Source of the DNA: a virus
Strand: one strand, 5' to 3'
DNA length: 64,000 nt
IMG/VR virus record: IMGVR_UViG_3300018080_000116
Location: 74,193 to 138,192 of that record
In this document: positions 4,443-30,136 of the stretch, piece after piece
Layout: each line of letters opens with the position of its first letter
Position numbering within the stretch: position 1 is the stretch's first letter
Made by a program: the position numbers and the translations under genes
Notes under the pieces: model-generated
What the model was told of the DNA's origin: nothing
Databases searched by the model: none
Seen by the model: only the letters and a program-made list of their open reading frames with translations

Positions 4443-4444
4443 GA

Positions 4445-6228: not shown

Positions 6229-6242
6229 CGGTTTGGGGACCG

Positions 6243-6284
6243 GCCCGGCTGCGTGATAAGGAGCGCAGCCGGGCACTCTTTTTT
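6243..6284 (+). terminator. intrinsic terminator
   Basis: GCCCGGCTGCG / CGCAGCCGGGC stem plus T-run. Confidence 0.7.
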
Positions 6285-6319
6285 GCACCGCAAGTTCGCA
6301 TGTATAACAGGACACGACC

Positions 6320-6562: not shown

Positions 6563-6822
6563 CACTGGACCCCACCGACGAACGCCGAGCCGAACACGGC
6601 CACCTAACACCAGCCCAACATGAAGCCCTGATGGAAGCCTGTGTGCAGGTGTATATGGCGGCGGATGGCATCGAGACCGTCCCCGAGTATGCCGCCCGAG
6701 CCGCCCTGGCAGGCGAAGGGCCAGACACGCTCGCCGCCATGCTGCCCGACGACACCGATCACTGCCGCCGCCTGGGCGTCAACTTCGATCCCGAAACCGG
6801 AGAGGAATGGCCCGATGAATAA
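6559..6822 (+). CDS. hypothetical acidic protein
   Basis: ATGA-coupled to the previous gene (MTLDPTDERR...). Confidence 0.6.
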   Translation: MTLDPTDERRAEHGHLTPAQHEALMEACVQVYMAADGIETVPEYAARAALAGEGPDTLAAMLPDDTDHCRRLGVNFDPETGEEWPDE

Positions 6823-7165
6823 CGTAGACAGCAGCCACGTGCAGATCACCGTCACCTGCGAGCGCTGCGGCCACACCTGGGACGTTGAAGACTATGATGC
6901 CCTGAGTGTGCAGGCCGCTGAGCAGGCCGCAAGGGAAGCCGAGTGCCAGAACTGCAACGCCACGTCCCGGCAGGTGAGGTTCTACAACATCAAGTGGGAC
7001 ACCACCGACGACGATCACCCGGACGGCCAGGACGTGGATCTGCCCGACGACGTGACCCTCGAAGTCGATGGCGACGTGGACCTGGACACCGAGGGTGCCG
7101 ACGTGCTCAGCGACAAATACGGCTGGTGCGTGTTCAGCTTCGACTATGAAGAGACCGAACCTTAG
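6815..7165 (+). CDS. acidic Zn-ribbon protein
   Basis: CERC...CQNC; GAGG RBS. Confidence 0.6.
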   Translation: MNNVDSSHVQITVTCERCGHTWDVEDYDALSVQAAEQAAREAECQNCNATSRQVRFYNIKWDTTDDDHPDGQDVDLPDDVTLEVDGDVDLDTEGADVLSDKYGWCVFSFDYEETEP

Positions 7166-7192
7166 CGCCCCTTCGTGTGTATAAGGGTGCGA
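7155..7192 (+). promoter_or_regulatory. conserved early promoter, copy 7
   Basis: CCGAAC-N17-TGTATAAG-GGTGCGA, overlapping the 3' end of the upstream gene. Confidence 0.8.
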
Positions 7193-7204
7193 AAGGAAAC
7201 CACC

Positions 7205-7570
7205 ATGCAAGAGATCAGCGCCTTTGCCATTCTGATCGCCAGCGACGGCGAGCCCATTCGAGTCCACCCCCAGATGGCCGGTGTGAAAACCGGCTTCGCC
7301 CGGATCGGCAACCCCTACTTCGACGGCGATCCCGATTGGCGACTCAAGGACGGCAACACCGTCATCGAGTGCCAACCCAGCGACTCCAGGGCGATCCCCG
7401 TGGCCGATGCCTACCAGAAACTACGAGCAGCCTGGGAGGCGGAAGCGGCTGAACTCCAGGCCGAGGAAGAGGCGTGGGAACGTGAGTGGGCCGAGCGCAA
7501 CGAACAACGCAGGTGGGACGAAACCATCGGCCACCTGTACCTCATCCAAGATCGTTTAATGGGAATCTAA
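7205..7570 (+). CDS. hypothetical protein
   Basis: AAGGA RBS after promoter 7; acidic coiled C-terminus. Confidence 0.7.
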   Translation: MQEISAFAILIASDGEPIRVHPQMAGVKTGFARIGNPYFDGDPDWRLKDGNTVIECQPSDSRAIPVADAYQKLRAAWEAEAAELQAEEEAWEREWAERNEQRRWDETIGHLYLIQDRLMGI

Positions 7571-7607
7571 CCGAACCTTTTGCGGCGAACTGTGTATAAG
7601 AGTGCGA
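7571..7607 (+). promoter_or_regulatory. conserved early promoter, copy 8
   Basis: CCGAAC-N16-TGTATAAG-AGTGCGA. Confidence 0.8.
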
Positions 7608-7740
7608 AAGGACGCCACCATGCTTTACTCAGTCCCCTACCGACGAACGGACGGCAGCCTCGACAGCTATTTTCTGTTCACCAACAGACAGCCCCCGGAA
7701 GGGGCCAGCCCCGTTCTGATCCCCAACAAGGAACCCAAAC

Positions 7741-8166
7741 ATGAGCCAGCCGACTTATCGAAGGCTGCCTGACGGCAGCGTGACCGTGGATGCACCCGGC
7801 ACCTGCGGCAAGCCGTTCGCCAACGTCCTGCGGATCGTCGAAGACGACAACGCCAACCCCGGCATCAAGATCACCACGTCCAGCGGCATCGTGGGTAGCA
7901 ACCTGCTGCGGCAGGTGCTCGCCGACCTGGAGTCTGGCGATTACCTGCTCAAGATGACCGAGGGCGGACCCGAGCCCCCTCGCCCCTCGATCACCGTCCG
8001 GTGGGGCAGCGAGAGCACCCGCAAAGACAACCCCGACCTGGAAGACGGCGACAAGTTCGAGTTCGACACCGAGGCCGAGGTCAACGCCTTCACCGAAGCA
8101 CTCGCCGCCGCCGATGGATGGGCCGAGTGGGAGATCATCGAACCGGAGGACGAGACCACCAACTGA
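7741..8166 (+). CDS. hypothetical acidic protein
   Basis: AAGGA RBS, high-GC coding bias. Confidence 0.65.
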   Translation: MSQPTYRRLPDGSVTVDAPGTCGKPFANVLRIVEDDNANPGIKITTSSGIVGSNLLRQVLADLESGDYLLKMTEGGPEPPRPSITVRWGSESTRKDNPDLEDGDKFEFDTEAEVNAFTEALAAADGWAEWEIIEPEDETTN

Positions 8167-8293
8167 ACACCACCACCGCAGCCCGGTGGCACCTAACCAA
8201 AGCCCGCACCCAAGGGTGTGCGTGAGCAGGGGGTGAGGCCGAACACATAAAGCCTCATGGGCCTGCAACCAGTACAACCTCTTTTCTCCTGAG

Positions 8294-8330
8294 CGCCCAC
8301 CGGCCCGAGGCCGGTGGGCGTTTTTATTTT
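8294..8330 (+). terminator. intrinsic terminator
   Basis: CGCCCACCGGCC-cga-GGCCGGTGGGCG-TTTTTATTTT. Confidence 0.8.
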
Positions 8331-8339
8331 CAAATTACA

Positions 8340-8377
8340 CCGAACCCCAGGCAGGCGAGCCGTGTATAAGGGGGCGA
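8340..8377 (+). promoter_or_regulatory. conserved early promoter, copy 9
   Basis: CCGAAC-N17-TGTATAAG-GGGGCGA. Confidence 0.8.
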
Positions 8378-8390
8378 AAGGAACAATGCC

Positions 8391-8864
8391 ATGACCAAGC
8401 AACTGACCCTCATCGACAACGACTTCACCATCGACAAGCGGTTCGTGCTTGGTGGCAAGGCCGTCTTCACGGTCTCGAACAACAAGGGTCAGCACTACAC
8501 CTACTTGGTGCAGCACAAGCCCGCCGACGACAAGTACCCCGAGGCGTACTTCGTCCGGTTGCTGACCGGCCCGGACAACATGGGCGATTACACGTACCTG
8601 GGCAAGCTCGACCAGCGTACCGGTTTCATGCAGTTGTCCCCCAAGAGCAAGATGAACGCCGACTCCCTGCCGGTCAAGGTCGTCCGCTGGGCATTGGCAA
8701 GGGTTATCTGGCCCGAGGCCCAGGTGCCCGAGGGCTACGGCATCCACGGCGAGGGTCGCTGCGGTCGCTGTGGTCACCCTCTCACTCACCCCGATGGGGT
8801 CAGCCCCGAGGGTCACCGGTTCGGATTCGGCCCGACCTGCTGGGCCAAACTCGTTGGAGGCTAA
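8391..8864 (+). CDS. DUF6011-like Zn-binding protein
   Basis: C-terminal CGRCGHPLT...GFGPTC motif. Confidence 0.6.
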   Translation: MTKQLTLIDNDFTIDKRFVLGGKAVFTVSNNKGQHYTYLVQHKPADDKYPEAYFVRLLTGPDNMGDYTYLGKLDQRTGFMQLSPKSKMNADSLPVKVVRWALARVIWPEAQVPEGYGIHGEGRCGRCGHPLTHPDGVSPEGHRFGFGPTCWAKLVGG

Positions 8865-8878
8865 GAGATCAATCCCAG

Positions 8879-8906
8879 CGATATATCCCACCGATGTATC
8901 CTGGGG
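8879..8906. promoter_or_regulatory. tandem palindromic operator-like site B (inverted copy of site A)
   Basis: reverse complement CCCCAGGATACATCGGTGGGATATATCG vs CCCCAGGATACATCCGTAGGATATATCC at 316. Confidence 0.5.
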
Positions 8907-8947
8907 AAGTATCCTGCGTTCTGTCCCTTAAACCTACGGAGATCATC

Positions 8948-9289
8948 ATGCAGTTTGTCGCCCACCCGCCCCGTCGCCTGCGTTCCCACCTGCGGCGTCT
9001 CGCCCAGGCCCAGGCCCTCCCGCTGCTGCTGGTTGGCCCGAAGCACACCGGCATCCGCCACGGCTACTGGTACGCCACGATCTACAACGGCCTGCTCGTG
9101 GCCATCACCAAGAAGCCGGTCGCCACCAGGGACGAGGGGCGTGGCCCCGAGGCCCTGCACCGGTTCGGTCGCAAGGCCAGCGAGTACCGTGTGCGGAGCG
9201 GCAGCTACGTGCAGGCCCAGGTCATCGAGGGCGGCAAGAAGGTCGCCCCCAAGTGGGACGCCCGCACCGGTCGCCGGATCGCCGCCTAG
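8948..9289 (+). CDS. hypothetical very basic protein
   Basis: ACGGAGA RBS; ends RIAA. Confidence 0.6.
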   Translation: MQFVAHPPRRLRSHLRRLAQAQALPLLLVGPKHTGIRHGYWYATIYNGLLVAITKKPVATRDEGRGPEALHRFGRKASEYRVRSGSYVQAQVIEGGKKVAPKWDARTGRRIAA

Positions 9290-9338
9290 AATCGTCTGTG
9301 CGGCCCGCTGAGGTACTTTCACCCCCGGAGGCAACACC

Positions 9339-9539
9339 ATGCTCACCATCGACGAGAACGACGCCAGGAACGACGTGGAAGGCCAGGACGCCGAGATCAA
9401 CGACCCCTGCGGCATGTGCGGTGGCCAGCTTGAGCCCCTCGGCCAACTGGCCTGCCTGCTGCACCTACGTTGCCGCAACTGCGGCATGATGTTCAACCGG
9501 CCCGTGGCCGGATGCGGCGACGGTGGCCGCATGTTCTAG
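9339..9539 (+). CDS. small Zn-ribbon protein
   Basis: CGMCGG...CRNCG; GGAGG RBS. Confidence 0.65.
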   Translation: MLTIDENDARNDVEGQDAEINDPCGMCGGQLEPLGQLACLLHLRCRNCGMMFNRPVAGCGDGGRMF

Positions 9540-9547
9540 TGATCCCC

Positions 9548-9584
9548 AGACCCACCGGGCAGCCGCCCGGTGGGTCTCTCTTTT
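9548..9584 (+). terminator. intrinsic terminator
   Basis: AGACCCACCGGGC / GCCCGGTGGGTCT stem plus CTCTTTT. Confidence 0.7.
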
Positions 9585-9730
9585 GGAGCGTACCATGTTA
9601 GGTCTCAACGGCGAGGTCATCAGAGCCATGCAGCGACTCGGCATCGAGCCCCCGTCGCTACCGATGCGACCCTCGCCTCCCCTCGTCCCGGCTGATCGCC
9701 AGGACGACAGCACCACCAACGGAGAAAACG

Positions 9731-10543
9731 ATGAAGGCGTTAATTGAAGTCGATCTTGCCGGTTGCGAAGGCATCCACCGGCAGCAGGCGCTCGACGTGC
9801 TCGCCGCCGTAGTGGACGGCAGCACCATGAGCGAGGCCCTTAGCACCGGCCTGTTCAACAGCAGCCTGTTCGAGTTGAGCAGGTTGGCCAAGCCTCAGTA
9901 TGAGGGCGGCAACTGCCCGGACTGCGGCGAGCCGATCCCCGACGATGCGACGTTCGGCGACGGCTGCGAGAACTGCGAACACGTCTTCGTATGGGGGCAC
10001 GATGAAGGCGACGAGCCCGAGGCCCCCGGCGTCAACTCATTGCGAGTGGTCGGCCTGGATGAAGGCATGAGGGTCGCCGTCCCGCACCTGACGGTCTACG
10101 TCGATCCCGAGCGAGTCGGCACCCCGTTCATGGTGGACGAGGATGGCCCGGACGACGAGCACGGCAGGCGATGCCCTGGCAGCAGTGGCAACCGCTACGC
10201 CTCGGCAGAGGCAGCAGGCCAGTACGTGGCCCGCTGGTTGAGCGATCCCCATGACGACCGTGGGTTACACCCTCTCGGCACTCGGAGTGGCACCCACGTG
10301 TCGGTGGTGGATGGTGGCACCGAGGTACGCCCCTGCATCGTGGACGTGGACAACAACACCGTCACCTTCCTCGACCCCAGCGACACGCATGGGCTCAAGG
10401 CGGCAAGGCCCGACAGTGAGTACCTGCTGATCCACAACGACCCCTTCTACTCCAACTGCCACCAACACCCTGTTGCCCACGTCAGCAGGAAGCCCGAGGA
10501 CTGGCCCACTGCCGAGACCGAGGACACGTACTACTACGAGTAG
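9731..10543 (+). CDS. acidic multi-domain protein with Zn ribbon; last gene of the early block
   Basis: CPDC...CENC; GGAGA RBS. Confidence 0.7.
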   Translation: MKALIEVDLAGCEGIHRQQALDVLAAVVDGSTMSEALSTGLFNSSLFELSRLAKPQYEGGNCPDCGEPIPDDATFGDGCENCEHVFVWGHDEGDEPEAPGVNSLRVVGLDEGMRVAVPHLTVYVDPERVGTPFMVDEDGPDDEHGRRCPGSSGNRYASAEAAGQYVARWLSDPHDDRGLHPLGTRSGTHVSVVDGGTEVRPCIVDVDNNTVTFLDPSDTHGLKAARPDSEYLLIHNDPFYSNCHQHPVAHVSRKPEDWPTAETEDTYYYE

Positions 10544-16922: not shown

Positions 16923-17152
16923 CAGATGTATTCCTCGATGATCTTGAGAACAGCCTTGATGTCGTCACCAGCCAGATCCAGTGTGGTTTCGCCTATCAAG
17001 AACTGAGCTTCGTCGGGGAAATATTCTTCCCCGTCATCGGTTTGCAGGGGGCCGTAGTTGTCTCGGAACACCTTGTCAGCATGTTGAAGCTTCTCTTGGA
17101 TTATCCTGACAATAACAGGCGGCATGAATTTAGGCACGACGACCCCTTTCAT
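16922..17152 (-). CDS. hypothetical protein
   Basis: coupled to neighbours. Confidence 0.55.
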   Translation of the reverse strand: MKGVVVPKFMPPVIVRIIQEKLQHADKVFRDNYGPLQTDDGEEYFPDEAQFLIGETTLDLAGDDIKAVLKIIEEYI

Positions 17153-17984
17153 TCACGTTCACGGGTGGCATCAATTCCAGGCGGAACGTCTTCGTGTTGA
17201 GATACATGGGCACTTCTGGATGTGCGCCTTTCCAGCGATTCTTCAATACGCAGCATCGAAACACATGGGTATTCCAAGAAACGGGAGTGTGGTCATAACG
17301 CATTTGGAGAACAACCGAAGGCATGTAGGCCAGCGGGCGATAATCCACAGCCGCCACCCCGAACTCATCATTCAATTTTTGTGTTGTAATCGAAAGAACA
17401 ATGGCACAATCGTGATCGTATGCCATGCCAACCAGTTGATGCAGCGTGTCCATCCTGCGTTTGGCTCGATAGTTGTAGGGCGTCTCCCCAGTTTGATACC
17501 AATTTCGGAAAGGAAGGGTTCCGAAGCTCTCGTCGAAAAGGATGTCGTGATTGCCCAACGCCCGATGCCAATTAGACTCGACATCTTGAGGCATGTATGA
17601 GGCGGGCAGCAGAGAGTAATCACCAAAATAATCAGTGGGGTAATACCACAAGTGCCCCTCAAAAGGGAGCGTGTTGGCACCCCTGTGAGCCAACAGGTGG
17701 GCCGTGCCCTGTTCAGGCACAAATCCCGCAGAACTTTTCTTGGCGGCATTGAGTGCCATGGTTCGCATGAGAGCCGATTTGCCAGAACCGGCTTTGCCCA
17801 TGACAACTGAGACGGTTCCTCGGCGAAGACCGCCTCCTAACGCCTCGTCGAGCATTGGAAATCCGGTTGTAATAAGCTGTTCATCCAGCTTGACGATCTT
17901 CTTTTTCTTTTCCGCCACCAGAAGCGTCGGTGCCGCCACAAACGTCCCGATCACTCCCAACATCTGCCGTCTGTTTAGATTCAT
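17130..17984 (-). CDS. Tat-leader protein 1: DnaB/RecA-fold ATPase
   Basis: MNLNRRQMLG leader; TGFPMLDEALGGGLRRG, Walker A GKAGSGKS, VLKNR. Confidence 0.75.
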   Translation of the reverse strand: MNLNRRQMLGVIGTFVAAPTLLVAEKKKKIVKLDEQLITTGFPMLDEALGGGLRRGTVSVVMGKAGSGKSALMRTMALNAAKKSSAGFVPEQGTAHLLAHRGANTLPFEGHLWYYPTDYFGDYSLLPASYMPQDVESNWHRALGNHDILFDESFGTLPFRNWYQTGETPYNYRAKRRMDTLHQLVGMAYDHDCAIVLSITTQKLNDEFGVAAVDYRPLAYMPSVVLQMRYDHTPVSWNTHVFRCCVLKNRWKGAHPEVPMYLNTKTFRLELMPPVNVNERGRRA

Positions 17985-18589
17985 TGCAAGTTCTCCCAGT
18001 GTGCTTCCATGCGAAAGCTGCCCTTCTCGCACATGAAGTCCATGCGGTCAATGTAGGATCGAGGATGACCGCTCGCCCAATACCAATACGACGGGTAATC
18101 AACATGCGCCCACACATCGGCATCGGGAGAGCCATGAAGCGGACTGCCCTCCCATATGGCAAAGCCCCTCTGGCCCGACAGCCACAGGGTAGCATCTGGA
18201 TTTTCTCGCAGATGATAGAAATTCCCCTTCCCCTCTTTCCACGCAGGCTTAAAGGCCATCATGTGGGAGATTGTGAAAGGGTGGGCCATGACCCACTTCA
18301 CCGGGCCTTTTTCTTTCCAAATGATCTCGCACAAATGCCAGTAAAACCCTTCAATGCGTTCGTTCACCAACAGATGTTCGGACTTGACATTGCCGTAGTG
18401 TAAATGCTTGGGCGCATCATGCAGCATGTCGAACGTCCGCACATCATGCTGGGGAATATGTCCCGGTTCGGGTTCCAGGATCTTTACTTCGTGTCTTCCT
18501 GGCTTGAGGGGAAGAAAAGCAGAAGCAGGCAAGACCACTGCGGCTCCCGCCGCAGTGGTCATTTTCAAAAAGTCCCTTCGATTATGCAT
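17981..18589 (-). CDS. Tat-leader protein 2
   Basis: MHNRRDFLKMTTAAGAAVVLPASA. Confidence 0.75.
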   Translation of the reverse strand: MHNRRDFLKMTTAAGAAVVLPASAFLPLKPGRHEVKILEPEPGHIPQHDVRTFDMLHDAPKHLHYGNVKSEHLLVNERIEGFYWHLCEIIWKEKGPVKWVMAHPFTISHMMAFKPAWKEGKGNFYHLRENPDATLWLSGQRGFAIWEGSPLHGSPDADVWAHVDYPSYWYWASGHPRSYIDRMDFMCEKGSFRMEAHWENLQ

Positions 18590-19091
18590 GGGGTCTCCTT
18601 TTTTGCTGTGCGGTCATAATGCAGACGTTGTTTTCCATGGCGACCCTTCTCCACATTTCCATTTCGGAGGGGAGTTCTCTCAAGTCAGAGAAAGACAGGG
18701 ACTTCACGACATCTCGCTTGGTCATGGGTTGACCAGCGATCAAAAGTCTGGCTTCGGGCCATGTGGCTTTTGCCACAGCAACCTTTGATACCAGATTGCG
18801 GGGCCCGTAGATGAACCAGACCTTCATGGGGTAGCTCATGTTCTCGTCGGCTTCGATGGAATCTTCTACCGCTCTCATAAAATCCCATTCCCGTTCTCGG
18901 TCTCTGAAGATCATTGGAACCCGAACGAGATCGGTTCCATCACCTTTGGCATCGATTTGACAATCATTGCTTTGTGTGGAAACGTAGTAGATTTCGCTCG
19001 CCTGTTTCACTGGCGTGGCGAAAGAGAGGGGCAAGACCACTGCGGCTCCCGCCGCAGTGGTCGTTTTCAAAAAGTTTCTTCGGTTAATCAT
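18582..19091 (-). CDS. Tat-leader protein 3 (C-terminus resembles a DnaB helicase fragment)
   Basis: MINRRNFLKTTTAAGAAVVLP; WRRVAMENNVCIMTAQQ. Confidence 0.7.
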   Translation of the reverse strand: MINRRNFLKTTTAAGAAVVLPLSFATPVKQASEIYYVSTQSNDCQIDAKGDGTDLVRVPMIFRDREREWDFMRAVEDSIEADENMSYPMKVWFIYGPRNLVSKVAVAKATWPEARLLIAGQPMTKRDVVKSLSFSDLRELPSEMEMWRRVAMENNVCIMTAQQKRRPHA

Positions 19092-19260
19092 TGTTTCCTC
19101 CAAACGAATCCGGTTCGTTCACATCGAATGCCCGCCCGAGTCCACACGATTCTATCGCAGTTCTCAAAGGATCGCACGGTGTTTCTTTTAGATGGTGCGT
19201 CCTTGTGAGCCACATGAGGGTCGTATGCCCTCTGAACAGGCGGCGCTTGTCGTGGAGCAT

Positions 19261-19473
19261 TCATTTTCGAGGGTCCGGTAGAAGGTACATGGGCCACAAG
19301 ATCGCCAGCCCGGCACATATCGCTGCTTTGCCCCAGTTGATACCGATGCCGGGCTCCCACCAGCGTCCGAATTTATGATCGGGCTGGGCAAACATCAAGA
19401 TAAAGCTCGTGGTCCATCCAATCAAGTAGACTGTGAAGAGGGTAGAGATGATCCATCCGATGATTGCAATCAT
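19261..19473 (-). CDS. small membrane protein
   Basis: two hydrophobic segments. Confidence 0.6.
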   Translation of the reverse strand: MIAIIGWIISTLFTVYLIGWTTSFILMFAQPDHKFGRWWEPGIGINWGKAAICAGLAILWPMYLLPDPRK

Positions 19474-19527
19474 GTTAATCTCAGTTTTGCAAAAAGGCTA
19501 CCCCGATTTTGTAGGTCTTTTTGTCCA

Positions 19528-19896
19528 TCAGTCTTTTACCTCTCTATACAGGCTTTGTTTCAGCCGCTTCCACTGCCCGCCGATATTATTTGCGTGTATG
19601 GAATGAAGCCCCTGAAAAAGGTTGACGGTGCTATCAGTGCGAACGAACACGCACACTTGGGTTCCCCCTTCTTCTGTCCTCCACAAGTACCATTCCCCCA
19701 GATCGGTCGGACACCGAGACCAGTTTTCTCGATCTCGTTTTTCCTCAGCTTGGATCTGGATGTCCATCAAGAGGGATTCAGCGGCTTGCAGGGTGGCAAA
19801 GCTGCCATCTGAATGGCGTATCTCTAGCGGATTCTCACACTCAACTGTCCACCCTTCGGACATCAATAGTTCGATCATATTGTCATCCATTGTCAT
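19528..19896 (-). CDS. hypothetical protein
   Basis: GGAGG RBS before MTMDDN. Confidence 0.6.
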   Translation of the reverse strand: MTMDDNMIELLMSEGWTVECENPLEIRHSDGSFATLQAAESLLMDIQIQAEEKRDRENWSRCPTDLGEWYLWRTEEGGTQVCVFVRTDSTVNLFQGLHSIHANNIGGQWKRLKQSLYREVKD

Positions 19897-20027
19897 CCTC
19901 CGTAATGAAGTTGCTTTCCCACCCTTCATGGTACGTTCCGTTGGCATCGTAGCCCTTGACGTACCAGTCGGCGGCGTACATTCCGTAGTGCTCTTTGGTC
20001 CGGGATACAACCCGGACGAGGACAACT

Positions 20028-20231
20028 TTAGTCGTTTGGCCCATGGCTTGCCACACCCCTTGTTTGGCGTTCCTGGATGACTTCCACCATCCGAATCCAA
20101 TCCCATTGTAGGTTCGGGCTGCATCGGATCTCGGTGAACTTAATCATGGCTTCCTGATCGGAATCGGCCTCAAACCGTGTGTAGAGTTTTTCTGGGATGT
20201 CATGTCGGGCGTGATAGACTTCGTATTTCAT
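20028..20231 (-). CDS. hypothetical protein
   Basis: operon position. Confidence 0.55.
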   Translation of the reverse strand: MKYEVYHARHDIPEKLYTRFEADSDQEAMIKFTEIRCSPNLQWDWIRMVEVIQERQTRGVASHGPND

Positions 20232-20542
20232 GTTTTCTTGTGTCTTGTAATGTCGAGTAGGTACAGGAATAGAACAATAACGCCAAGGATCAAAGCCACT
20301 ATGATGGCGGCTGCGAACAAAGTCCCAAGAAGGAGGGCAAAACCACCAATGATAGTCCCATCATTAAACTCCCACGCCAACTCCGGTGTCCCCCACAACC
20401 AGTTGAAGGCGGTTGTGGTGGGGCCGACTATTTGTCTCCAGCAGGAGAGCAGCAGCATGATTGGCTTGCCGAAGATGGCCAAGACAACGCATGTCATTGT
20501 CACATAAACCAACAGTCGTCCGGTGGTGTATTGCTTCAACAT
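20228..20542 (-). CDS. membrane protein
   Basis: two long hydrophobic stretches. Confidence 0.6.
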   Translation of the reverse strand: MLKQYTTGRLLVYVTMTCVVLAIFGKPIMLLLSCWRQIVGPTTTAFNWLWGTPELAWEFNDGTIIGGFALLLGTLFAAAIIVALILGVIVLFLYLLDITRHKKT

Positions 20543-20781
20543 GACACAAATAAGGGTCCATTCGGTCCCACATATGCCCCAAGTGTGTTGAATTGAAAGT
20601 ATTCAATGGCGTCTTCTTCGGTTGCGCCATCTTTCATGAGGATGTCAATGCATTTGATGCTGCTGTAGACGGCTCGACAGGGTTCACATGCGTTATGCGT
20701 AAACCCTATGATGGCATCATCGAACCCATCGGCGAACAGGGCATCCTCATTTCTTTCTGCGATCTGTTCTTTTAGATTCAT
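20536..20781 (-). CDS. conserved-type phage hypothetical protein
   Basis: ADGFDDAIIG...AIEYFQFNTLGAYVG pattern common in phage small proteins. Confidence 0.65.
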   Translation of the reverse strand: MNLKEQIAERNEDALFADGFDDAIIGFTHNACEPCRAVYSSIKCIDILMKDGATEEDAIEYFQFNTLGAYVGPNGPLFVSC

Positions 20782-20824
20782 TCTTTTAATTTTGTTTTCT
20801 TTTCCCTAGTGCTTCCGATGGACA

Positions 20825-20858
20825 AACGCCCCGTGCCACCGGCACGGGGCGTTCTTTT
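20825..20858. terminator. intrinsic terminator hairpin
   Basis: AACGCCCCGTGCC-acc-GGCACGGGGCGTT. Confidence 0.7.
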
Positions 20859-20881
20859 GATTGTGATTTAATCTGGCTTAT

Positions 20882-21115
20882 TTACCAAGCCAGTACGACG
20901 CCATCCCCTCGTCGGATAATCTCAAAGCCCATTGTCTTGAGAGCGGGCCAGATTTTTCCTTCTGCCATGCCTTTTGGGGGCAATGGGAGGGAGATGTTTC
21001 GCAGCGGAGAGATGAATCGGTTCCTTCCCGCTCGCTCAATTTCACGAGCCCTTAGGGTAATCTCGGAGACATACCGGCTGGCTTCCATTCCTTTTTCCTT
21101 GTTTGCCCCTGTCAC
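20882..21115 (-). CDS. hypothetical protein
   Basis: operon position. Confidence 0.5.
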   Translation of the reverse strand: MTGANKEKGMEASRYVSEITLRAREIERAGRNRFISPLRNISLPLPPKGMAEGKIWPALKTMGFEIIRRGDGVVLAW

Positions 21116-21118
21116 GCC

Positions 21119-21580
21119 CTACTTCTTCACGACGTACTTGGTTCCTTCCACGACGATCCATTCCATGGTCCTGAGATCGACTTGACGCATTTGGGGACCG
21201 GTTTCGACCAGTTCTTCCACCTGGGCGTAGCCCGTGTCGTTGGTGGCGAGGAATCGGCAGATCATGTTACGGTCGGAGCCGTCTTTCTTGACGAATTGGA
21301 TCTGGATGGGTTTGTTGGGGCTATCCTTGAGGATGCCGATGATCTTGGTTCGGCTGAGGGTGACTTCTTCTTCAACGAAGTTGCCTGAGAACCCTTTTTG
21401 GATCAGTGGTTCGCCTTGGACGGTGAACATCTGGTCTTGTTCGATGTTCTTGACGACGAGGCACAGGTCTCCGTCTTTGTTTTTTACTTCCTCCACGATG
21501 GTGTAGAAGTGAAAGGCGACGACATCGCCTTTTTTGACTTTGGTGGGATCGAGTTCATTGATTACTTTGTCTTCGTTCAT
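21119..21580 (-). CDS. WYL-like/SH3-fold protein
   Basis: IQFVKKDGSDRNM...RQVDLRT pattern. Confidence 0.55.
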   Translation of the reverse strand: MNEDKVINELDPTKVKKGDVVAFHFYTIVEEVKNKDGDLCLVVKNIEQDQMFTVQGEPLIQKGFSGNFVEEEVTLSRTKIIGILKDSPNKPIQIQFVKKDGSDRNMICRFLATNDTGYAQVEELVETGPQMRQVDLRTMEWIVVEGTKYVVKK

Positions 21581-21599
21581 TGGTTTTCCTTTCTCCTTG

Positions 21600-22154
21600 T
21601 TAATCGGTAAGAGCGTTCAATTCTTCCGGCCATTTTGATTTTCCGCTTATCGCAATATCGGCCAGATCACCCAGGAGATCCCATTGGACGTTGAAGGTGT
21701 CACCTTCTCGGAGGTACGTGTCCAGTTCTCGGAAAGATCTCAACACCAGAGACTCTCCATCTGGAAAGGGGCTTTTTTTATAGAACAGTTGGAGGGACAG
21801 GCGGGACACGTGAAAGAGAGAGTCACGGGCAACGAAGTGGCCCGTGACTCTGAAGGTTGCGTCTTCGTAGACGACTTTAGTGTCATCCAGGATGTAGCAA
21901 GCAGTTGCGGGCTTGCCGAGGTGGATCATTTGTCTTGAGCCGACCGAGCGTCTGCCCGTGATGTCCATGAAAGCCGTGAAGCTTTCGGCCAGTCGTTGTT
22001 TGGCGTCATCGAGTGATGAGTGGGAGACGACGAGTCGATCTTTGGGCGGCTCGTCGATACCGAAGTTATCGTCAGTGAGCAGCGAAAAGGGGATGAATGC
22101 TGCGGATGCCCCAGCGGCGGCTGTTTTCAGGAAGTTCCTGCGGGTGTGCGACAT
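21600..22154 (-). CDS. Tat-leader protein 4 (possible baseplate/fibre-domain paralog)
   Basis: MSHTRRNFLKTAAAGASAAFIP; C-terminal GDTFNVQWDL. Confidence 0.7.
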   Translation of the reverse strand: MSHTRRNFLKTAAAGASAAFIPFSLLTDDNFGIDEPPKDRLVVSHSSLDDAKQRLAESFTAFMDITGRRSVGSRQMIHLGKPATACYILDDTKVVYEDATFRVTGHFVARDSLFHVSRLSLQLFYKKSPFPDGESLVLRSFRELDTYLREGDTFNVQWDLLGDLADIAISGKSKWPEELNALTD

Positions 22155-22287
22155 TATTAACTCCGTCTAATAATGGAATCGGAGAAACGAAGAGCGACTG
22201 CGGCATCCTGCCGCAGTCGCTCTCTCCCCATGCGAGGCTTTACAATCCTTATGCCTCCCCTGCCACAACGTCCCATGTTGTGGACTT

Positions 22288-22692
22288 CTACTGGCTAGAT
22301 CCTTCTGCCTCGTTTTCACCTTGGGGGTTGAGCAACTCTTCCTTGCTTCTCCATGCTTTGCGAAGTTCGATCTTACTCATCCCGGCCCATTTGTCAATAC
22401 AGGTTTGGTGTTGCTCGTCGGTGAGTCGCCCTTCTTCTTTTGCGGTGTTGGCCCAAGCAGTCAGGCTTGTTTTGTATTGTTCCTTGGCCATTTCGTTGAA
22501 AACGATTTGCGTTGTTGTTTCCTGAAAGCCGGTGGGTGGGTGTGCGATGAATTCTTCACCGTCTGCGGCTTGGCCCATTTCGTCGATCTGGGCGAGATCA
22601 TCATGGGGAGCTTCATCGGGCGCAATCTCGGGCTGGGGTTCTTGGCAGCCAACGAAGAGGACAAAGGCTAGGAGGGGCAGCAGGCGTTTCAT
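22288..22692 (-). CDS. lipoprotein
   Basis: MKRLLPLLAFVLFVGC lipobox. Confidence 0.7.
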   Translation of the reverse strand: MKRLLPLLAFVLFVGCQEPQPEIAPDEAPHDDLAQIDEMGQAADGEEFIAHPPTGFQETTTQIVFNEMAKEQYKTSLTAWANTAKEEGRLTDEQHQTCIDKWAGMSKIELRKAWRSKEELLNPQGENEAEGSSQ

Positions 22693-22785
22693 TGGTTTTC
22701 CTTAGACATCCGTGGGCTTGGAGGGTATTGATTACGTGGTCGGCGGCAGTATCAGTGTCCATGCCTGATACATCAATTTTGAGTC

Positions 22786-23190
22786 CTATGTCAATGGCGT
22801 TTCGGAGGGCGGCGATGATTTCGGCTCGGGCGGTTTCATACTGCATGATCTTTCACCATAATACATGTAAACATTTTCATAATACCAATCAATGGTGAAC
22901 GCCAGGAAGACACAATGTTCCGGGCAGTTCTCTTTTATAGCTTCGGGCAGCGAGATGTATTTGCTGCGAAGAACGTCTTTGGTTTTGGTCTTTCCAAACC
23001 ATCCCTCAACCTCTTCTTGACACACAACGAAATCCTTCCACACGAGGATTTCGCCAGTCCCCTCGCCTGTGGCCACCTTTTTTTTGACGACGTAGACACG
23101 TTCGAGGCTAGTGATGTCGAACGAGACGAGGGCGGCGGCATTTTGGGCGGCTGTTGCTGCGGCGGGTTGTGGCACGGGTTTACCTAACAT
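22786..23190 (-). CDS. hypothetical protein
   Basis: start reassigned to MLGKPVP. Confidence 0.55.
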   Translation of the reverse strand: MLGKPVPQPAAATAAQNAAALVSFDITSLERVYVVKKKVATGEGTGEILVWKDFVVCQEEVEGWFGKTKTKDVLRSKYISLPEAIKENCPEHCVFLAFTIDWYYENVYMYYGERSCSMKPPEPKSSPPSETPLT

Positions 23191-23468
23191 GTTTCTTGTT
23201 TGACTCGCTCCAGGTTGGCGAGCAGGTTGTATTTGATGACCCAATGCAGGTGCGGATTATAGATGATGTCGTGTCTAATTTGCAAGTAGTCTTTTTCGTC
23301 TTGGCAAGCCATAATCCTCTTGCAGAATTCGCCATCGAGTGCCTTGATACCGAGTGGTGTTTTACAGCAGAAAAAGAAGCTGCTGTTGAGAGGTGCTTGA
23401 TCGACGTAGACGGCATCCATGCCGCCGCAGTCTTCAAGCGTGAAGGGCAGGTCCATCTGGATCAACAT
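23184..23468 (-). CDS. hypothetical protein
   Basis: start reassigned to MLIQMDLP. Confidence 0.5.
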   Translation of the reverse strand: MLIQMDLPFTLEDCGGMDAVYVDQAPLNSSFFFCCKTPLGIKALDGEFCKRIMACQDEKDYLQIRHDIIYNPHLHWVIKYNLLANLERVKQETC

Positions 23469-24031
23469 CCGTCTTGCACCTTTGAGATTGCGTGGACTCC
23501 AAGCAGTTTTACATTCTTTGACACGACAGTGACATATCGCTCTTCTTGGCAGGGGGTGACATCGAAAAGTTCTCTCTCGGTGTCGGCTTGAACGGCGGTG
23601 CGGAAGACAATATCTTTGGGCATGCCTCTTTTGGGCAACACCAATTCCCTGAGTCGTCGGCCTTCGGGGGTGTCGAGGCATTGGATGTCGCAAATAACCC
23701 AATCCTCGTGGGTGTCGCAATCATGAAGAAACTCGAATTTTGTAGCAACGTGAGAGATTTCGCTGAGACGGATCTTACAATCTTTGGGCATGCCGATTTG
23801 GCCCCACACGCCTTCTTTGGGAATTCGGTCAACCATTTCCTCGATGGCTTTCCGGGGGTAAATGTTCATGTTCTTGGTGGGGCGGTCAAGAACAAGCGTC
23901 CGGACGTGTACGAGTTTGTCGGGAGGTTTCGCCACGGCTTCAACGACCGGTGGCGTGTCCTCGAAAGAGATGGGGATCGCTGCGGCGGATGCGGCTGCCG
24001 CTGCCGTTTTCAAAAAACTCCTTCTATCCAT
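23462..24031 (-). CDS. Tat-leader protein 5: degenerate T4 gp21-type prohead protease homolog
   Basis: [20 protein letters not shown]; NMNIYP, GQIGMP, ISHV, LDTPEG follow the gp21 motif order. Confidence 0.7.
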
Positions 24032-24230
24032 CGTCTTCCCGGCCTCCTTGATCTGCCCGCTGGATTGCTTCCCAGACTTCCCTGCGGTGAACGCACTTCC
24101 ACTCCTTGGGAGCGTTGATGCCGAGTCGGACTTTATCGCCTCGGATTTCAACGACCACGATGTCAATTACGTTGTCGGGATCGGGGCCAACAACAATGCT
24201 TTCATTTTTCTTTCTGGACAACACGAGCAT
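24024..24230 (-). CDS. csrA: carbon storage regulator CsrA/RsmA
   Basis: [15 protein letters not shown]...[16 protein letters not shown]...VHRREV. Confidence 0.95.
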
Positions 24231-24243
24231 GGGAATCTCCTTT

Positions 24244-24879
24244 TTAACAGAGTTCGTTAATGAGAGCGTCCTTCAGTTCTCCATCGAGCTTCAGGGGTTC
24301 GCCAAGGGGTTGGAAACCACACACATGAACGGCGTAGAATTCGTCAAGGGCAGCTTCGTCAAAACCACGGAAGCAATCAATCATTTCGCCGAAATACAAG
24401 TCCATCGTAAGCAGTTCCCAACCGCTCTTCGTGAACTGACTTCCAATAGATACTGGATGAACGTCGGCGAGACATTCTTGTCTGTTGTTGGCGAAGTCCC
24501 AGAGCGTTACGATCCTGGAATCAACAACATAGTCCAGCTTTCCACCTTCTCGCTTAAACGGCGTGGGCTTCGACCAATCCCATAGATCTTGTGACAGAAC
24601 TTTGGCGTCCTTGAGAGTGAAAGTCAGCCGCAATGATCCGACGAGGCCCCGTGCATCCCCATTGAAGCGCCGGTAAGTCCAAAAGAAATTGGGAATCCAA
24701 TTGATGCCTTCGATGTGAAGTCCCAGTTGGTCGTCACGACCATAAACGTCGCCGTACTTGGTAATGGGTTTGGGTTTCGGCTTTGGAAGAACGGGTTCGT
24801 AAGAAATCAGCGGAGCCACAATCGGCAATGACAGAGCGGCGGCAGTGTTCCTCAAAAAGTCACGTCTTGTGGCGATCAT
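24244..24879 (-). CDS. Tat-leader protein 6 (possible gp19-type tail tube paralog)
   Basis: [19 protein letters not shown]; WIP..W, LWDW, TLWD..NN.QE.L.DV.P.SI pattern. Confidence 0.7.
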
Positions 24880-24999
24880 CTTTCTTTCTCCTCTCATGGA
24901 ACTTGGAAACATCGAAATCAATTTTGACTCGATGGTTCTTGCGCAAAACAATCACTCCCGACCTGCGGTCGGAAGTGATTTTGATGACTTTCTTGTTTT

Positions 25000-25182
25000 T
25001 CATTGCCCCACGGCCTTAATCAGATCGGGCAGGCTTGAAGAGAAACCCGCAAGCAGGAAACCAACAAACAGGAACCAACCCCATCCTTCCTTTTCTTTCA
25101 CGGCCAAGAAGGCGGCAACGATGAAGCAGGTGATGGACGGTAGTAGGGACAGGAATAAAACTAATAGGGCCACGATGTTCTC
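25000..25182 (-). CDS. small two-TM membrane protein
   Basis: hydrophobic C-terminal part of ORF 25000..25491; exact start uncertain. Confidence 0.45.
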   Translation of the reverse strand, partial: ENIVALLVLFLSLLPSITCFIVAAFLAVKEKEGWGWFLFVGFLLAGFSSSLPDLIKAVGQ

Positions 25183-25183
25183 C

Positions 25184-25735
25184 TTAACAGATGGCGGTCG
25201 GTGCGGCACAACGGGGGTGAAGGTATATTCCTTCGACCTTTTGTAGAGTGGATTCGGGAATGACCCCAACATTGATCCACAGTTGGTTTTTGAGCGTGCG
25301 AACCAAAACCAACTTAACCGCTCCATAGCAAACCCAATGTTCGTCGTCGATTCGTCTCTCGTAACAAACAGCATCGCTTTTCCGGAGGAACGCTTTGATG
25401 TTTTTCTCGTAGAATTCAATGTCGGTTGGCTCGCCCGTGGCGAAGTCGGTCCCACGGACACCTTCCCAGGGGGTTTCGTCAAAAAGCACATCCCCGTTGA
25501 TGAGGTATGGCCCCATCATTTCGATCACAGGCAGGAGTCCAGCGGGAGTCATCTCCACCCTAATGACACTGCCGGGTTTGGAAGGTTCGCCCCTTTTCAA
25601 CTCCTCATACTCCATATCCCACTTCCAATCGGGGTATCTCAATCGGTCGGTATCGGTATAGGCTTCGGCGGCGACGGGTATGGCAGCACCAGCAAGTGCG
25701 ATTGGGGCGGCTTTGAGAAAAGTGCGTCGTTCCAT
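25184..25735 (-). CDS. Tat-leader protein 7
   Basis: MERRTFLKAAPIALAGAAIPVAAEA with an AEA cleavage motif. Confidence 0.75.
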   Translation of the reverse strand: MERRTFLKAAPIALAGAAIPVAAEAYTDTDRLRYPDWKWDMEYEELKRGEPSKPGSVIRVEMTPAGLLPVIEMMGPYLINGDVLFDETPWEGVRGTDFATGEPTDIEFYEKNIKAFLRKSDAVCYERRIDDEHWVCYGAVKLVLVRTLKNQLWINVGVIPESTLQKVEGIYLHPRCAAPTAIC

Positions 25736-25746
25736 GGATTCCTCCA

Positions 25747-26331
25747 TCAATGTTCATGAAAACACATATCACAAGCGTCCTGCCAACAATAATGACCGCA
25801 AGCCTCGCAGTCATTTGGGCACTCAAACATGCCCACAGCGATTGGAAGTGAGTTAATCGCCGCAACTGGAATCCCCATTGTAGGTTGTGGGAAATCCGTG
25901 TCAAGAGATTCTCGCAGAATCATGTTGGGCAGTTCAGCCAACTTCAAGAGGGGTTTAAGAAGATCCCTCCGTCGAGTGGTTGACCGGAATAGCGTATCAG
26001 GTGTATTCCTGACAATCTCTATGACTTTTTCAACATACTCTTCGGAGTAGTAATCCCCTCCGGAGTGCCAACGAAAGAAATCTGGCTGGAATCTTTTCAA
26101 TTCGGCTAGTACCTTCTCTACGAAGTCTTTCCGCTTGGATGCACGGTAGCGTGCAAGGGTTGCCTTGCGCACCGAGTCCATTTTGAAATTATTCCGGCGA
26201 GCGTAGCAGGCTGGCTTGCCATTACGGCCCTTGAGGCACCAACTCGTCGGCTTGCAGGTTAGATGTGGTGGGAGATTGAAGATGTAGACTTTCGCCCCCA
26301 TCTTGCTGTTGCCCTTGATGAGCAGATTCAT
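25747..26331 (-). CDS. phage 'gene 88'-family Cys-rich protein
   Basis: GNSKMG...FNLP..TC...C...CYA, FRWHSGGD, CPNDCEACG.CW. Confidence 0.75.
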   Translation of the reverse strand: MNLLIKGNSKMGAKVYIFNLPPHLTCKPTSWCLKGRNGKPACYARRNNFKMDSVRKATLARYRASKRKDFVEKVLAELKRFQPDFFRWHSGGDYYSEEYVEKVIEIVRNTPDTLFRSTTRRRDLLKPLLKLAELPNMILRESLDTDFPQPTMGIPVAAINSLPIAVGMFECPNDCEACGHYCWQDACDMCFHEH

Positions 26332-26578
26332 CGTACTTCTCCAATTCGTATTCCACTACGTCAGACCAAGTAAGCTCGCCGAGATCGTTAGCGTATCTGA
26401 TGCGGTATTTGTAGCCTTTGGCCCAGCCATTGTAGCTGAAACTATTGACAATGGTAGCCGTTTTGTCCAGTGCGGGAACATAAACTATTTCCCCGCAGAC
26501 AAACTTGTTGTTGGGCTCGTTATCGGCTGGAGCGCAACCGAAAATCAACAAAATCAAGATGAACAGCGACTTTTTCAA
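26222..26578 (-). CDS. lipoprotein
   Basis: TTG start after AAGGAG; KKSLFILILLIFGC lipobox. Confidence 0.6.
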   Translation of the reverse strand: MKKSLFILILLIFGCAPADNEPNNKFVCGEIVYVPALDKTATIVNSFSYNGWAKGYKYRIRYANDLGELTWSDVVEYELEKYDESAHQGQQQDGGESLHLQSPTTSNLQADELVPQGP

Positions 26579-26591
26579 TCCGGGGCTCCTT

Positions 26592-27317
26592 TCAGACGGA
26601 TTCATAGCGGGTGCAACAGTGTGGCCGAAAATCATAGACTGCGAAGGGCTCGAACTTGTGTGGATCGGATCGAGGGGGAAACTCAATTTCTCTAGTCAAG
26701 AACATACGACCCCAGCCCCACTTACAACGACAGCTTGATCCGCTGGGCCACGTGATCTCTTTGCCCTCCGGGTGAAAACAAACAACCCTGTTTTCGTAAG
26801 GCAGGATTACCTCACGCATGTTGGTTTGCGAAACGAACTTCCCATGGTCTTTGTATTCACTCCAGCGACTATGGACATACCCTTCGATGGCCGAGTCAAG
26901 CCAGTCGAAAAGATACTTGTCATCCCCACCATCTTTATGCAGTTTGCGGAAGTAGGAGCGGATTCTTCCCCAGTGAGAGGGAACCACGGGCAGGCCATAG
27001 GCTTCGTGTAATTTACACCACTCACACTCGGGCACCAACTCTGCATAGTCCTTGCCCGGCATGCGATGCAATCGAAGGTTTTCTTCCGTGCAGGCATCCA
27101 CCCAGAATGTTCCCCGGCAGAGTTTGCAGCGGTACTTAGCATCCGGGCCGTCACCGAACATGAACTCAAAGTGTCTCCATCCGGACACCGATCCGGACAC
27201 TTTGTCCGGTTTCTTGTCCGGATTGGCCTTAATAATCGGTGTATTAAGTCCTAGCGGAACGACACAAGTAGCGGCGGCTGTCGCCGCCGATACTTTAAGG
27301 AAGTCACGTCTACGCAT
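26592..27317 (-). CDS. Tat-leader protein 8 (CxxC pairs)
   Basis: MRRRDFLKVSAATAAATCVVP; CKLC, CEWC. Confidence 0.75.
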   Translation of the reverse strand: MRRRDFLKVSAATAAATCVVPLGLNTPIIKANPDKKPDKVSGSVSGWRHFEFMFGDGPDAKYRCKLCRGTFWVDACTEENLRLHRMPGKDYAELVPECEWCKLHEAYGLPVVPSHWGRIRSYFRKLHKDGGDDKYLFDWLDSAIEGYVHSRWSEYKDHGKFVSQTNMREVILPYENRVVCFHPEGKEITWPSGSSCRCKWGWGRMFLTREIEFPPRSDPHKFEPFAVYDFRPHCCTRYESV

Positions 27318-27326
27318 TGTAAGCTC

Positions 27327-27557
27327 CTATGCTGCTGCGGCCTGCACCGCCATGATGAACCGTTGGTCTTCTTCAAGCATCATTTCTTTAACGGCTCGTT
27401 CCCTCATCAAATCAAGTAGGTCTTGGTGGGCTTGACCAAGACGGCGGACCTTGGGTTGGGGTGGAACTGGATCTTTGGGCTGCGGCGTGCAACCCAAGGG
27501 AACAACCGCCGCCGCCATGCTGGCGGCGACGGTTTTTAAAAAACTTCGACGGTTCAT
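27327..27557 (-). CDS. Tat-leader protein 9, possible Tat lipoprotein
   Basis: MNRRSFLKTVAASMAAAVVPLGC. Confidence 0.7.
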   Translation of the reverse strand: MNRRSFLKTVAASMAAAVVPLGCTPQPKDPVPPQPKVRRLGQAHQDLLDLMRERAVKEMMLEEDQRFIMAVQAAAA

Positions 27558-29214: not shown

Positions 29215-29795
29215 TCAGGCTCCCGCAGTTGATGCAGGAATTCACCGGCAACTAACACGCCCATTCTTAAGATATGTTCACACAGAGAGTCCCCTTCTTG
29301 TCGTTTAACCTCAAACTCTTCGGCTGTACCTTCGGTTATGTCCAGCGATCCCTTTTTCAATCGACTTTCCCACCAACCGCCATAACCACCAGTTCGATAG
29401 AATCGTTCTTGCGCATCGAACTTTTCATCCCAGTCCATGGTTGTGGAACCATTTTCAAGGACGAGAAAGAAATCGAAATCATCTGGCTTGTTGACATGCC
29501 CTCTGCTGTACCAGCGAATCGGCCATATGCCCCGGAGTGATCTCGCCCACACCTCTTTTTCCACGGCTGAGCCGAAAGCAATTACTGCTTTGATGTTGGC
29601 CCATCCACCCAGTTTGTTGATGACAAAATCGTCCAGAGATACGGCGTTAAAGACGACATCCCCGTTGGGGTAGATGATACTAACTGAATCGTAGGCAGAG
29701 TAATTTTTGGTGCCATAATTTCGAGCCTTTTCAATCATCTCTTGAAACTGCTCGATGGAGACGGGCCCGAACACTTTATTTGATACGCTGGCCAT
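29169..29795 (-). CDS. minimal nucleotidyltransferase-like protein
   Basis: IAFGSAV and DDFDFFLV (GS + DxD); start reassigned. Confidence 0.6.
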   Translation of the reverse strand: MASVSNKVFGPVSIEQFQEMIEKARNYGTKNYSAYDSVSIIYPNGDVVFNAVSLDDFVINKLGGWANIKAVIAFGSAVEKEVWARSLRGIWPIRWYSRGHVNKPDDFDFFLVLENGSTTMDWDEKFDAQERFYRTGGYGGWWESRLKKGSLDITEGTAEEFEVKRQEGDSLCEHILRMGVLVAGEFLHQLREPEWHLGDRTCTISPPK

Positions 29796-30136
29796 TACTT
29801 CTGGTCCATCATGTTTGGCATGAAGATATTCTCTGGTTGCGCCATGTGTTTGCGGCGACTCTGAATCATCTTCACTAGGGTAATGCCCACAAAAATGCCC
29901 GCCGAATACCCAGTTGCCCAAGCAACATAACAGTGCCATGTTGTCAAGTTTTTCATGACTTGGCTGATGGCAACCAGCCACACCAGGGTTTCGAAGAACC
30001 CCAGACCCGCAGCGATCCACCGATTTCCCTGGGTAACATAGATGACCTTCATCGTTCCCAGGGAAACATCAACTACACGTGCAAGAAAAATCCCTACCGG
30101 GATCGCAATGTAGTTTAGAAGTTGTACATCTGTCAT
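29795..30136 (-). CDS. UPF0316/DUF5698-type membrane protein
   Basis: ARVVDVSLGTMKV, LGFFETLVWL, Y.AW..GY..G. Confidence 0.8.
   Translation of the reverse strand: MTDVQLLNYIAIPVGIFLARVVDVSLGTMKVIYVTQGNRWIAAGLGFFETLVWLVAISQVMKNLTTWHCYVAWATGYSAGIFVGITLVKMIQSRRKHMAQPENIFMPNMMDQK

Follow-up and report, generated by a model that had tools for sequence, protein, structure and literature searches.

Why would a phage carry a row of genes whose products begin with the signal of a bacterial export route, and what would these products be doing outside the cytoplasm? The question is raised by a window of 64,000 nucleotides that forms the final part (positions 74,193 to 138,192) of the linear IMG/VR record IMGVR_UViG_3300018080_000116, which is 138,192 bp long. 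Nine minus-strand open reading frames (ORFs) between window positions 17130 and 27557, here numbered T1 to T9 (Table 1), start with leaders that resemble those of substrates of twin-arginine translocation (Tat). Bacterial Tat signals follow the consensus S/T-R-R-x-F-L-K, as in NapA, CueO and SufI of E. coli, and Tat, the route for folded proteins, is regarded as serving host enzymes. A sequence-only reading of the window had listed the nine ORFs, taken the DNA to be that of a phage, and described the leaders as confined to this block and the mature parts of the nine proteins as mutually unrelated; all of these statements hold. With moderate confidence, we regard the nine-gene set as genuine host-exported Tat substrates within an envelope-directed accessory module, and T2 to T9 probably carry genuine Tat-type signal peptides, which makes seven or eight genes depending on T6, whose leader fits the Tat motif by eye only.

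The leaders and their distribution

The phage origin of the record is documented by gp25/gp6-like baseplate wedge proteins, a gp5/gp27-type hub, GP88, ClpP and a CCA-adding enzyme, as well as by synteny with a 595-kb phage. The latter, the uncultured and unannotated LR756511.1 (595,163 bp), is the best relative among deposited phages (baseplate protein identity 46%), and the record represents part of the genome of a huge myovirus that is T4-related and kin to it. According to CheckV, the completeness of the record is 27%, so that the full genome would measure roughly half a megabase.

All nine products show the twin-arginine (RR) motif Z-R-R-x-hydrophobic-hydrophobic near the N-terminus, and seven of them the exact form RRxFLK. 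The leader begins two to four residues past the ATG in each gene, every one of the nine ATGs is preceded 6-12 nt upstream by a GGAG-type Shine-Dalgarno sequence, and the same nine products with identical starts are found in the independent gene calls of JGI, ENA and Logan. A scan of all ORFs from 50 aa upwards in the 138-kb record for the motif combined with hydrophobicity yielded, in addition to the nine, only spurious out-of-frame ORFs. With the strict motif RR.[FM]L[KRG], 11 ORFs are obtained where 0.7 are expected (maximum 5 in 200 residue shuffles), roughly 15-fold above the shuffle expectation. Furthermore, a six-frame search with the Pfam family TAT_signal (PF10518) gave seven matches in the record, six of them above the cut-off, and in the 595-kb relative a single weak match and none above it.

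Two curated hidden Markov models (HMMs) recognize most of the leaders. T2, T3, T5, T8 and T9 exceed the gathering score of PF10518, with T4 at 22.5 versus 22.7, and T2, T3, T4, T5, T7, T8 and T9 score at or above the cut-off of the NCBIfam model TIGR01409 (16.7 bits). T2 scores 27.4 bits for TAT_signal and 26.3 for TIGR01409; T8 reaches 24.1 bits with the Pfam model, T9 has 23.3 and 21.3 bits with the Pfam and NCBIfam models, respectively, and TIGR01409 gives 20.8 bits for T4 and 16.9 bits for T7. Hydrophobic or small residues occupy at least 85% of the 14 positions past the motif, the uncharged core spans 12-17 residues, and in six of the nine leaders a Pro stands exactly 16 residues past the second Arg. 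The h-regions are rich in Ala, with KD12 values of 1.6-2.2; the corresponding value is 2.73 for the Leu-rich leader of a Sec lipoprotein-like ORF of this block, and membrane ORFs have 2.3-3.3. Tat h-regions are less hydrophobic than Sec ones, and on these values the phage block contains two distinct leader classes that match the predicted difference between Tat and Sec signals. Cleavage-like sites are seen in T2 (ASA), T3 (SFA) and T7 (AEA), and a lipobox-like PLGC in T9; the leaders of T1, T4, T5, T6 and T8 have no clear site. Several leaders are followed by Pro/Lys-rich linkers, which by analogy resemble those of tethered periplasmic proteins.

In comparison with bacterial Tat signals, the phage leaders share the twin-arginine motif, the short n-region, the moderately hydrophobic Ala/Gly-rich h-region, the terminal Pro and, in some cases, a possible AxA site. 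In contrast to them, they are encoded by a phage, stand nine in a row, and precede cargoes that have no relatives among cofactor enzymes; several lack a clear signal-peptidase site, and T1 carries an ATPase. A direct match between the leaders of NapA and T5 in the PDB is weak and far from significant (E 1.7, second of two rows). The signal type is a textbook one, which does not hold for its phage bearer, the number of leaders and the virion-protein ancestry of cargoes.

By sequence, the nine leaders are related to one another, unlike the mature parts, among which neither blastp nor phmmer detects any relationship; nor were paralogues of the cargoes found within the 138-kb record. The leader DNA of T2 and T3 is a 62-nt direct repeat (18528-18589 and 19030-19091, 90% identical) that ends exactly at the ATG, although the two cargoes are unrelated, and the leaders of T4 and T5 share 16 of 21 residues. 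Evidently, to judge from these similarities, different genes have received copies of the leader, which would spread from gene to gene via local duplication. Conservation in relatives, which the sequence-only reading had named as a check, was found for T1, T5 and T8, whose homologues (three or four each, 42-66% identity) all keep the leader. For homologues of all three, the longest contigs agree in length (50,994 and 10,682 nt), so that these genes very probably occur side by side in the related phages; further contigs with homologues measure 34,612 and 8,366 nt. Leaders of this type, as predicted from sequence, are not unique to the present phage: five RR leaders are found in LR756511.1, a distant relative, and the T5 family has more than 50 leader-bearing clusters.

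Cargoes and their ancestry

The most informative cargo is that of T5, a protein in which a Tat-type leader and a Pro-rich linker precede a gp21 (Peptidase_S77) fold. Its AlphaFold2 (AF2) model, built on 43 family members, has a predicted local distance difference test (pLDDT) score of 87; in it, a disordered linker joins a helical leader to a beta-rich domain. The only significant PDB match of this model in Foldseek is gp21 of T4 (5JBL; probability 1.00, E 2e-5). At the sequence level, T5 matches PHROG 207 with E 2.5e-4, and one member of its family matches genes annotated as gp21 in hundreds of T4-like phages, with E-values down to 2e-12. T5 thus has the fold of T4 gp21 together with its NxRIYP and TPxG blocks; unlike gp21, it is shorter, carries a Tat-type leader with a linker, and has the hallmark His and Ser motifs replaced, GELxHP by GQIGMP and SSRG by FRTA. 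The His of GELxHP and the Ser of SSRG are, as we assume, the catalytic residues of gp21. Met replaces this His in T5, and His occurs there in none of 149 family members. T5 is thus a gp21-fold protein and, on sequence grounds, most probably not a gp21-type protease, i.e. a diverged and probably non-catalytic paralogue of gp21.

A profile of the four close relatives of T5 retrieved 276 cluster representatives with E at most 0.001 among 1.84 billion. The family consists of short proteins of 110-190 aa. Among the best 150 of the 276 representatives, about 50-56 have an M(D/N)RRxFL leader, and the others start at the domain. In the 56 leader-bearing members, RR is invariant, F and L are nearly invariant, the n-region is very short (MDRR), and the uncharged run after the motif has a median of about 13-14 residues. 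Members that were looked up are unnamed or 'hypothetical', and some of them lie on contigs of 122-293 kb. The start of T5 itself is constrained by a phage homologue of CsrA in the interval from T6 to T5. The stop of this gene and the start of T5 overlap by 8 nt, so that a longer upstream frame is excluded for T5.

The relative LR756511.1 adds to this picture. It possesses five RR-leader ORFs, which are dispersed, and four of the five are paralogous to leaderless proteins of the same genome (Table 1). The counterpart of T5 is a paralogue of the true gp21 of that phage: Pfam assigns Peptidase_S77 to it with E 3e-8 and to the true gp21 with 2.5e-27, it scores 33.8 bits on PF03420 (cut-off 27), it has Met at the His position like T5, and its leader reads RRCFIAE. 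The remaining paralogues concern gp15 (tail terminator or tail sheath stabiliser), a conserved portal segment and an uncharacterised protein. Judged from these similarities, the description of a cargo as a degenerate copy of a core protein appears to hold for T5 and for LR756511.1; it fits T1 loosely and does not extend to the remaining seven. The head genes of the present phage lie outside the fragment.

In T1, an atypical RR leader (MNLNRRQMLGVIGTFVAAPTLLVAEKKKK; RRQMLG, followed by KKKK) is joined directly to a P-loop domain of the RecA/KaiC/DnaB superfamily, which begins 8 residues after the hydrophobic stretch and the KKKK block. Walker A and B are retained, and GSGKS and DILFDES are invariant in the three homologues (42-48% identity), in which no part of the protein is conserved as well as the leader. 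A profile of four homologues matches chains of RecA, KaiC and RadA, and T1 reaches no specific family cut-off in Pfam or NCBIfam. T1 may not belong with the other eight, and the Tat nature of its leader is doubtful.

T8 offers a more conventional case. Its four homologues retain MHRR(D/E)FLK together with six Cys, among which two CxxC pairs are invariant and possibly point to a metal site. Folding in the cytoplasm around such a site is a classic reason for the Tat route, and the putative metal site would give T8 an ordinary reason to use it. Its fold was not recovered: the AF2 model has a pLDDT of 58, and there was no match in the PDB (Foldseek), in BFVD or in a wide VIA search (best Z 3.8). 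Rows for tail-tube, Hcp and baseplate proteins at Z 2.6-3.2 were discarded as too weak.

For T2, T3, T4, T6 and T7, searches of Pfam and PHROGs, and of the ESM Atlas for T2 and T6, gave no informative match. The cargo of T2, 179 aa behind a leader with the cleavage-like ASA, thus has neither a Pfam or PHROG match nor a fold from the ESM Atlas; for T6 and T2, this resource returned only Tat-signal-like features (score 0.80, a lead only), and the models were poor. In T6, the leader TRRDFLR is followed by a PKPKPKP linker. In T9, the leader ends in the lipobox-like VPLGC, after which come first a Pro-rich stretch and then a short part that is helical; a PHROG match to the major head protein (E 0.04) was dropped after comparison with gp23 of LR756511.1 failed to confirm it. 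A 17-residue stretch that T7 has in common with a SpoVR-like protein of LR756511.1 was judged to be due to chance. The last residue of T5, T6 and T7 is a Cys. The cargoes of T2, T3, T5, T6, T7 and T8 have even numbers of Cys (2, 2, 6, 4, 4 and 10, respectively), a feature that was abandoned as a sign of periplasmic location because homologues do not all match.

Proposed export and its alternatives

According to the explanation we favour, the proteins would fold in the cytoplasm of the infected cell, the host TatBC receptor would recognise the RR-x-F-L-K motif, and the Tat translocase, driven by the proton-motive force, would carry the folded proteins to the periplasm, where they would be released or tethered at the outer face of the inner membrane. 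Genes for TatA or TatC were found neither in the 138-kb record nor in LR756511.1. Export, its dependence on Tat, the location of the products and their role are what we infer from the motif, the HMM scores, the starts and the conservation of the leaders, together with the fold of T5 and the paralogies. The proposal of the sequence-only reading that the nine genes encode phage Tat substrates stands in part: the sequence features of Tat signals are present and the leaders are kept in orthologues, but T1 and T6 are outside the HMM cut-offs.

Several observations weigh against export by Tat. T1 and T6 score below the cut-offs of both PF10518 and TIGR01409, and clear AxA sites are limited to T2, T3 and T7. 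In the wider T5 family, about half of the members show Glu five to six residues past RR, at a position where Tat signals usually carry Lys, and about two-thirds of the family (among the best 150 of 276) are without any leader. The even Cys counts are not kept throughout the homologues. The ATPase of T1 is apparently intact, and in a periplasm without ATP supply it would be an odd cargo. Finally, to our knowledge, the gp21, gp15, portal and RecA-like ancestors are cytoplasmic in every studied phage.

These points invite other explanations. The leaders might bind TatBC or insert in the inner membrane while the domains, through co-assembly with large phage complexes, stay in the cytoplasm and tether head, tail or DNA-metabolism assemblies. 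In T4, gp40 and gp20 tether prohead initiation to the membrane. Such docking without export, the main rival, would agree with the paralogy between the cargoes of known ancestry and ring-forming assembly proteins of the cytoplasm (gp21, and in LR756511.1 also gp15 and portal), with an intact Walker A/B ATPase that follows the hydrophobic stretch and KKKK of T1 at a distance of only 8 residues, with the conservation of the T1 leader beyond that of typical signal peptides, and with the small number of clear signal-peptidase sites. We nevertheless consider docking improbable: stable anchors would have to be longer and more hydrophobic than the h-regions of 12-17 residues, the linkers rich in Pro and the AxA or lipobox-like sites suit exported proteins, most cargoes have no detectable kinship to assembly proteins, and we know of no precedent for docking at the Tat receptor as a tether. 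It is quite improbable that the leaders represent another N-terminal address or a propeptide, for example a capsid or scaffold targeting peptide that is cut by the head protease. It is true that the phage is T4-related, that T5 itself is a paralogue of a head-core protein, and that many T5-family leaders read RRxFLxE and the copy in LR756511.1 RRCFIAE, reminiscent of the motif (L/I)xE at which gp21 cleaves. The capsid-targeting sequence of T4, however, is an N-terminal tag of about 10 residues that ends in (L/I)-x-E and is devoid of a hydrophobic core, whereas the nine leaders have K, R or G instead of E after FL, followed by a hydrophobic core of 12-17 uncharged, Ala-rich residues; moreover, two Tat HMMs match above their curated cut-offs, and a hydrophobic signal-like peptide would meet the host targeting machinery before packaging.

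Tat carries partner proteins along with a substrate, which would allow Tat-tagged look-alikes to bind host defence sensors and to remove or mislocalise them. The cargoes of known ancestry do resemble protein classes reported as immune triggers (protease, portal, recombinase); a 2026 preprint reportedly deals with prohead proteases that activate the cyclic-oligonucleotide-based anti-phage signalling system (CBASS). This kind of hitchhiking is very improbable, as there is no sign of any sensor, most cargoes are of no known ancestry, and most known sensors far exceed the size that Tat can carry. Scarcely credible is the view, put forward by the sequence-only reading as the other option, that the leaders saturate or jam the host TatABC translocase: nothing was found in its support. 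Nine substrates may be co-expressed, and overproduced substrates reportedly saturate Tat, a finding ascribed to DeLisa et al. in 2004; diverse, conserved and folded cargoes would nevertheless be needless for this purpose, since a single leader would be enough.

If the favoured Tat export takes place, what could the exported proteins do? As a guess, look-alikes of virion ring proteins could bind incoming virion parts in the periplasm and thereby bring about superinfection exclusion or sensing. We rank this role first among the conceivable ones, with low confidence and by analogy, because binders of virion parts would make good blockers or sensors and because phages export exclusion proteins by other routes. 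Imm and Sp of T4 and the lipoprotein Ltp of the Streptococcus phage TP-J34 are exported superinfection blockers. The T4 antiholin RI is likewise a secreted phage protein (PMC8385771). The tentative likeness would be that of phage proteins which cross the cytoplasmic membrane and act on incoming phage or on lysis timing; unlike the cluster, those proteins have Sec-type signals or anchors, and no similarity between them and the cluster was found in Pfam or PHROGs. It is possible, though unlikely, that huge T4-related phages generally duplicate and disable gp21, gp15 and a portal segment, add copied Tat leaders to them, and export them as periplasmic binders of virions.

Genomic setting and implications

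The cluster lies in a minus-strand block of the window and is followed by the tail and baseplate genes on the plus strand (Table 1). Window positions 30.7-62.7 kb are collinear with 560-585 kb of LR756511.1, and a comparison with the whole of that record revealed no counterpart of the cluster stretch, which therefore sits in a variable, accessory region of the phage. The G+C content is about 0.50 and even over the cluster and its phage flanks. Within the stretch, the RR-leader genes are accompanied by two lipoprotein-like ORFs, the second of them a candidate only, and by small membrane-protein ORFs. These neighbours suggest a module aimed at the envelope, in which the RR-leader proteins, the two Sec-type lipoprotein-like ORFs and the small membrane proteins would belong together within the variable region. 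A scan for promoters and terminators did not resolve operons or expression timing.

Table 1. Coordinates of the RR-leader genes, of other features of the window, and of RR-leader ORFs in LR756511.1.
Feature	Position	Strand	Remarks
T1	17130-17984	-	NRRQMLG
T2	17981-18589	-	NRRDFLK
T3	18582-19091	-	NRRNFLK
T4	21600-22154	-	TRRNFLK
T5	23462-24031	-	DRRSFLK
T6	24244-24879	-	TRRDFLR
T7	25184-25735	-	ERRTFLK
T8	26592-27317	-	RRRDFLK
T9	27327-27557	-	NRRSFLK
Phage CsrA homologue	24024-24230	-	NCBIfam PRK01712, E 2.7e-19
Sec-type lipoprotein-like ORF within cluster	22288-22692	-	MKRLLPLLAFVLFVGC; KD12 2.73
Second lipoprotein-like ORF, candidate only	26222-26605	-	LFILILLIFGC; overlaps GP88 by ~80-110 nt
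Small membrane-protein ORF	19261-19473	-	KD19 2.11
Small multi-span membrane-protein ORF	20228-20542	-	KD19 3.26
GC-rich hairpin	20825-20853		13 bp, perfect; intergenic
DUF5698 membrane protein	29795-30136	-	Pfam E 1e-19
ArdC-N/zincin-like metallopeptidase fusion	728-1759	+	Pfam E 1e-32, 3e-26
Block with GP88, ClpP, histidine phosphatase, HAD/Pnkp-like phosphatase, CCA-adding enzyme, DSP-like phosphatase	14.5-37.5 kb	-
Tail and baseplate genes	37.6-63.5 kb	+	gp25-like and gp6/J-like wedge proteins; hub with Phage_base_V OB domain
3833-aa single ORF upstream of baseplate genes	40849-52350	+	only partly alignable to LR756511.1 counterpart
LR756511.1, RR-leader ORF	242240-243133		paralogue of true gp21 (525953-526621), E 8e-21
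LR756511.1, RR-leader ORF	217923-218561		paralogue of gp15 tail sheath stabiliser (466654-467706), E 1.5e-21; Pfam 1.2e-18
LR756511.1, RR-leader ORF	410484-410744		resembles conserved portal segment (531014-533587), E 1e-4; Pfam Portal_T4 9e-4
LR756511.1, RR-leader ORF	157861-158208		paralogue of uncharacterised 101-aa protein

Some further features of the window were recorded. The record as a whole is a mosaic in G+C content (0.47-0.63); the first part of the window (positions 1-10500) has 0.59-0.64, and the rest about 0.50. The former part includes a fusion of an ArdC-N anti-restriction domain with a zincin-like metallopeptidase. A membrane protein with DUF5698 adjoins the cluster, and a perfect GC-rich hairpin in an intergenic position of the minus-strand block may be a bidirectional terminator.

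The sequence-only reading knew of no described family of phage Tat substrates, in agreement with full-text searches of the open-access literature, in which no natural family of this kind was found. If the favoured explanation is true, the transport of nine folded proteins via Tat would represent large-scale use of this route by a phage, and the exported set would include a disabled copy of the head protease and, in the relative, copies of gp15 and portal. It would also mean that unrecognised periplasmic activities take place during infection by huge phages, in which most genes lack an explanation. For experimental work, the T5 family with its 276 clusters provides a concrete and widespread test case, and the short, near-identical leaders are suited to reporter assays. 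Should the reading as superinfection exclusion prove true as well, the genes would constitute a previously undescribed class of phage Tat substrates and reveal a new principle of exclusion.

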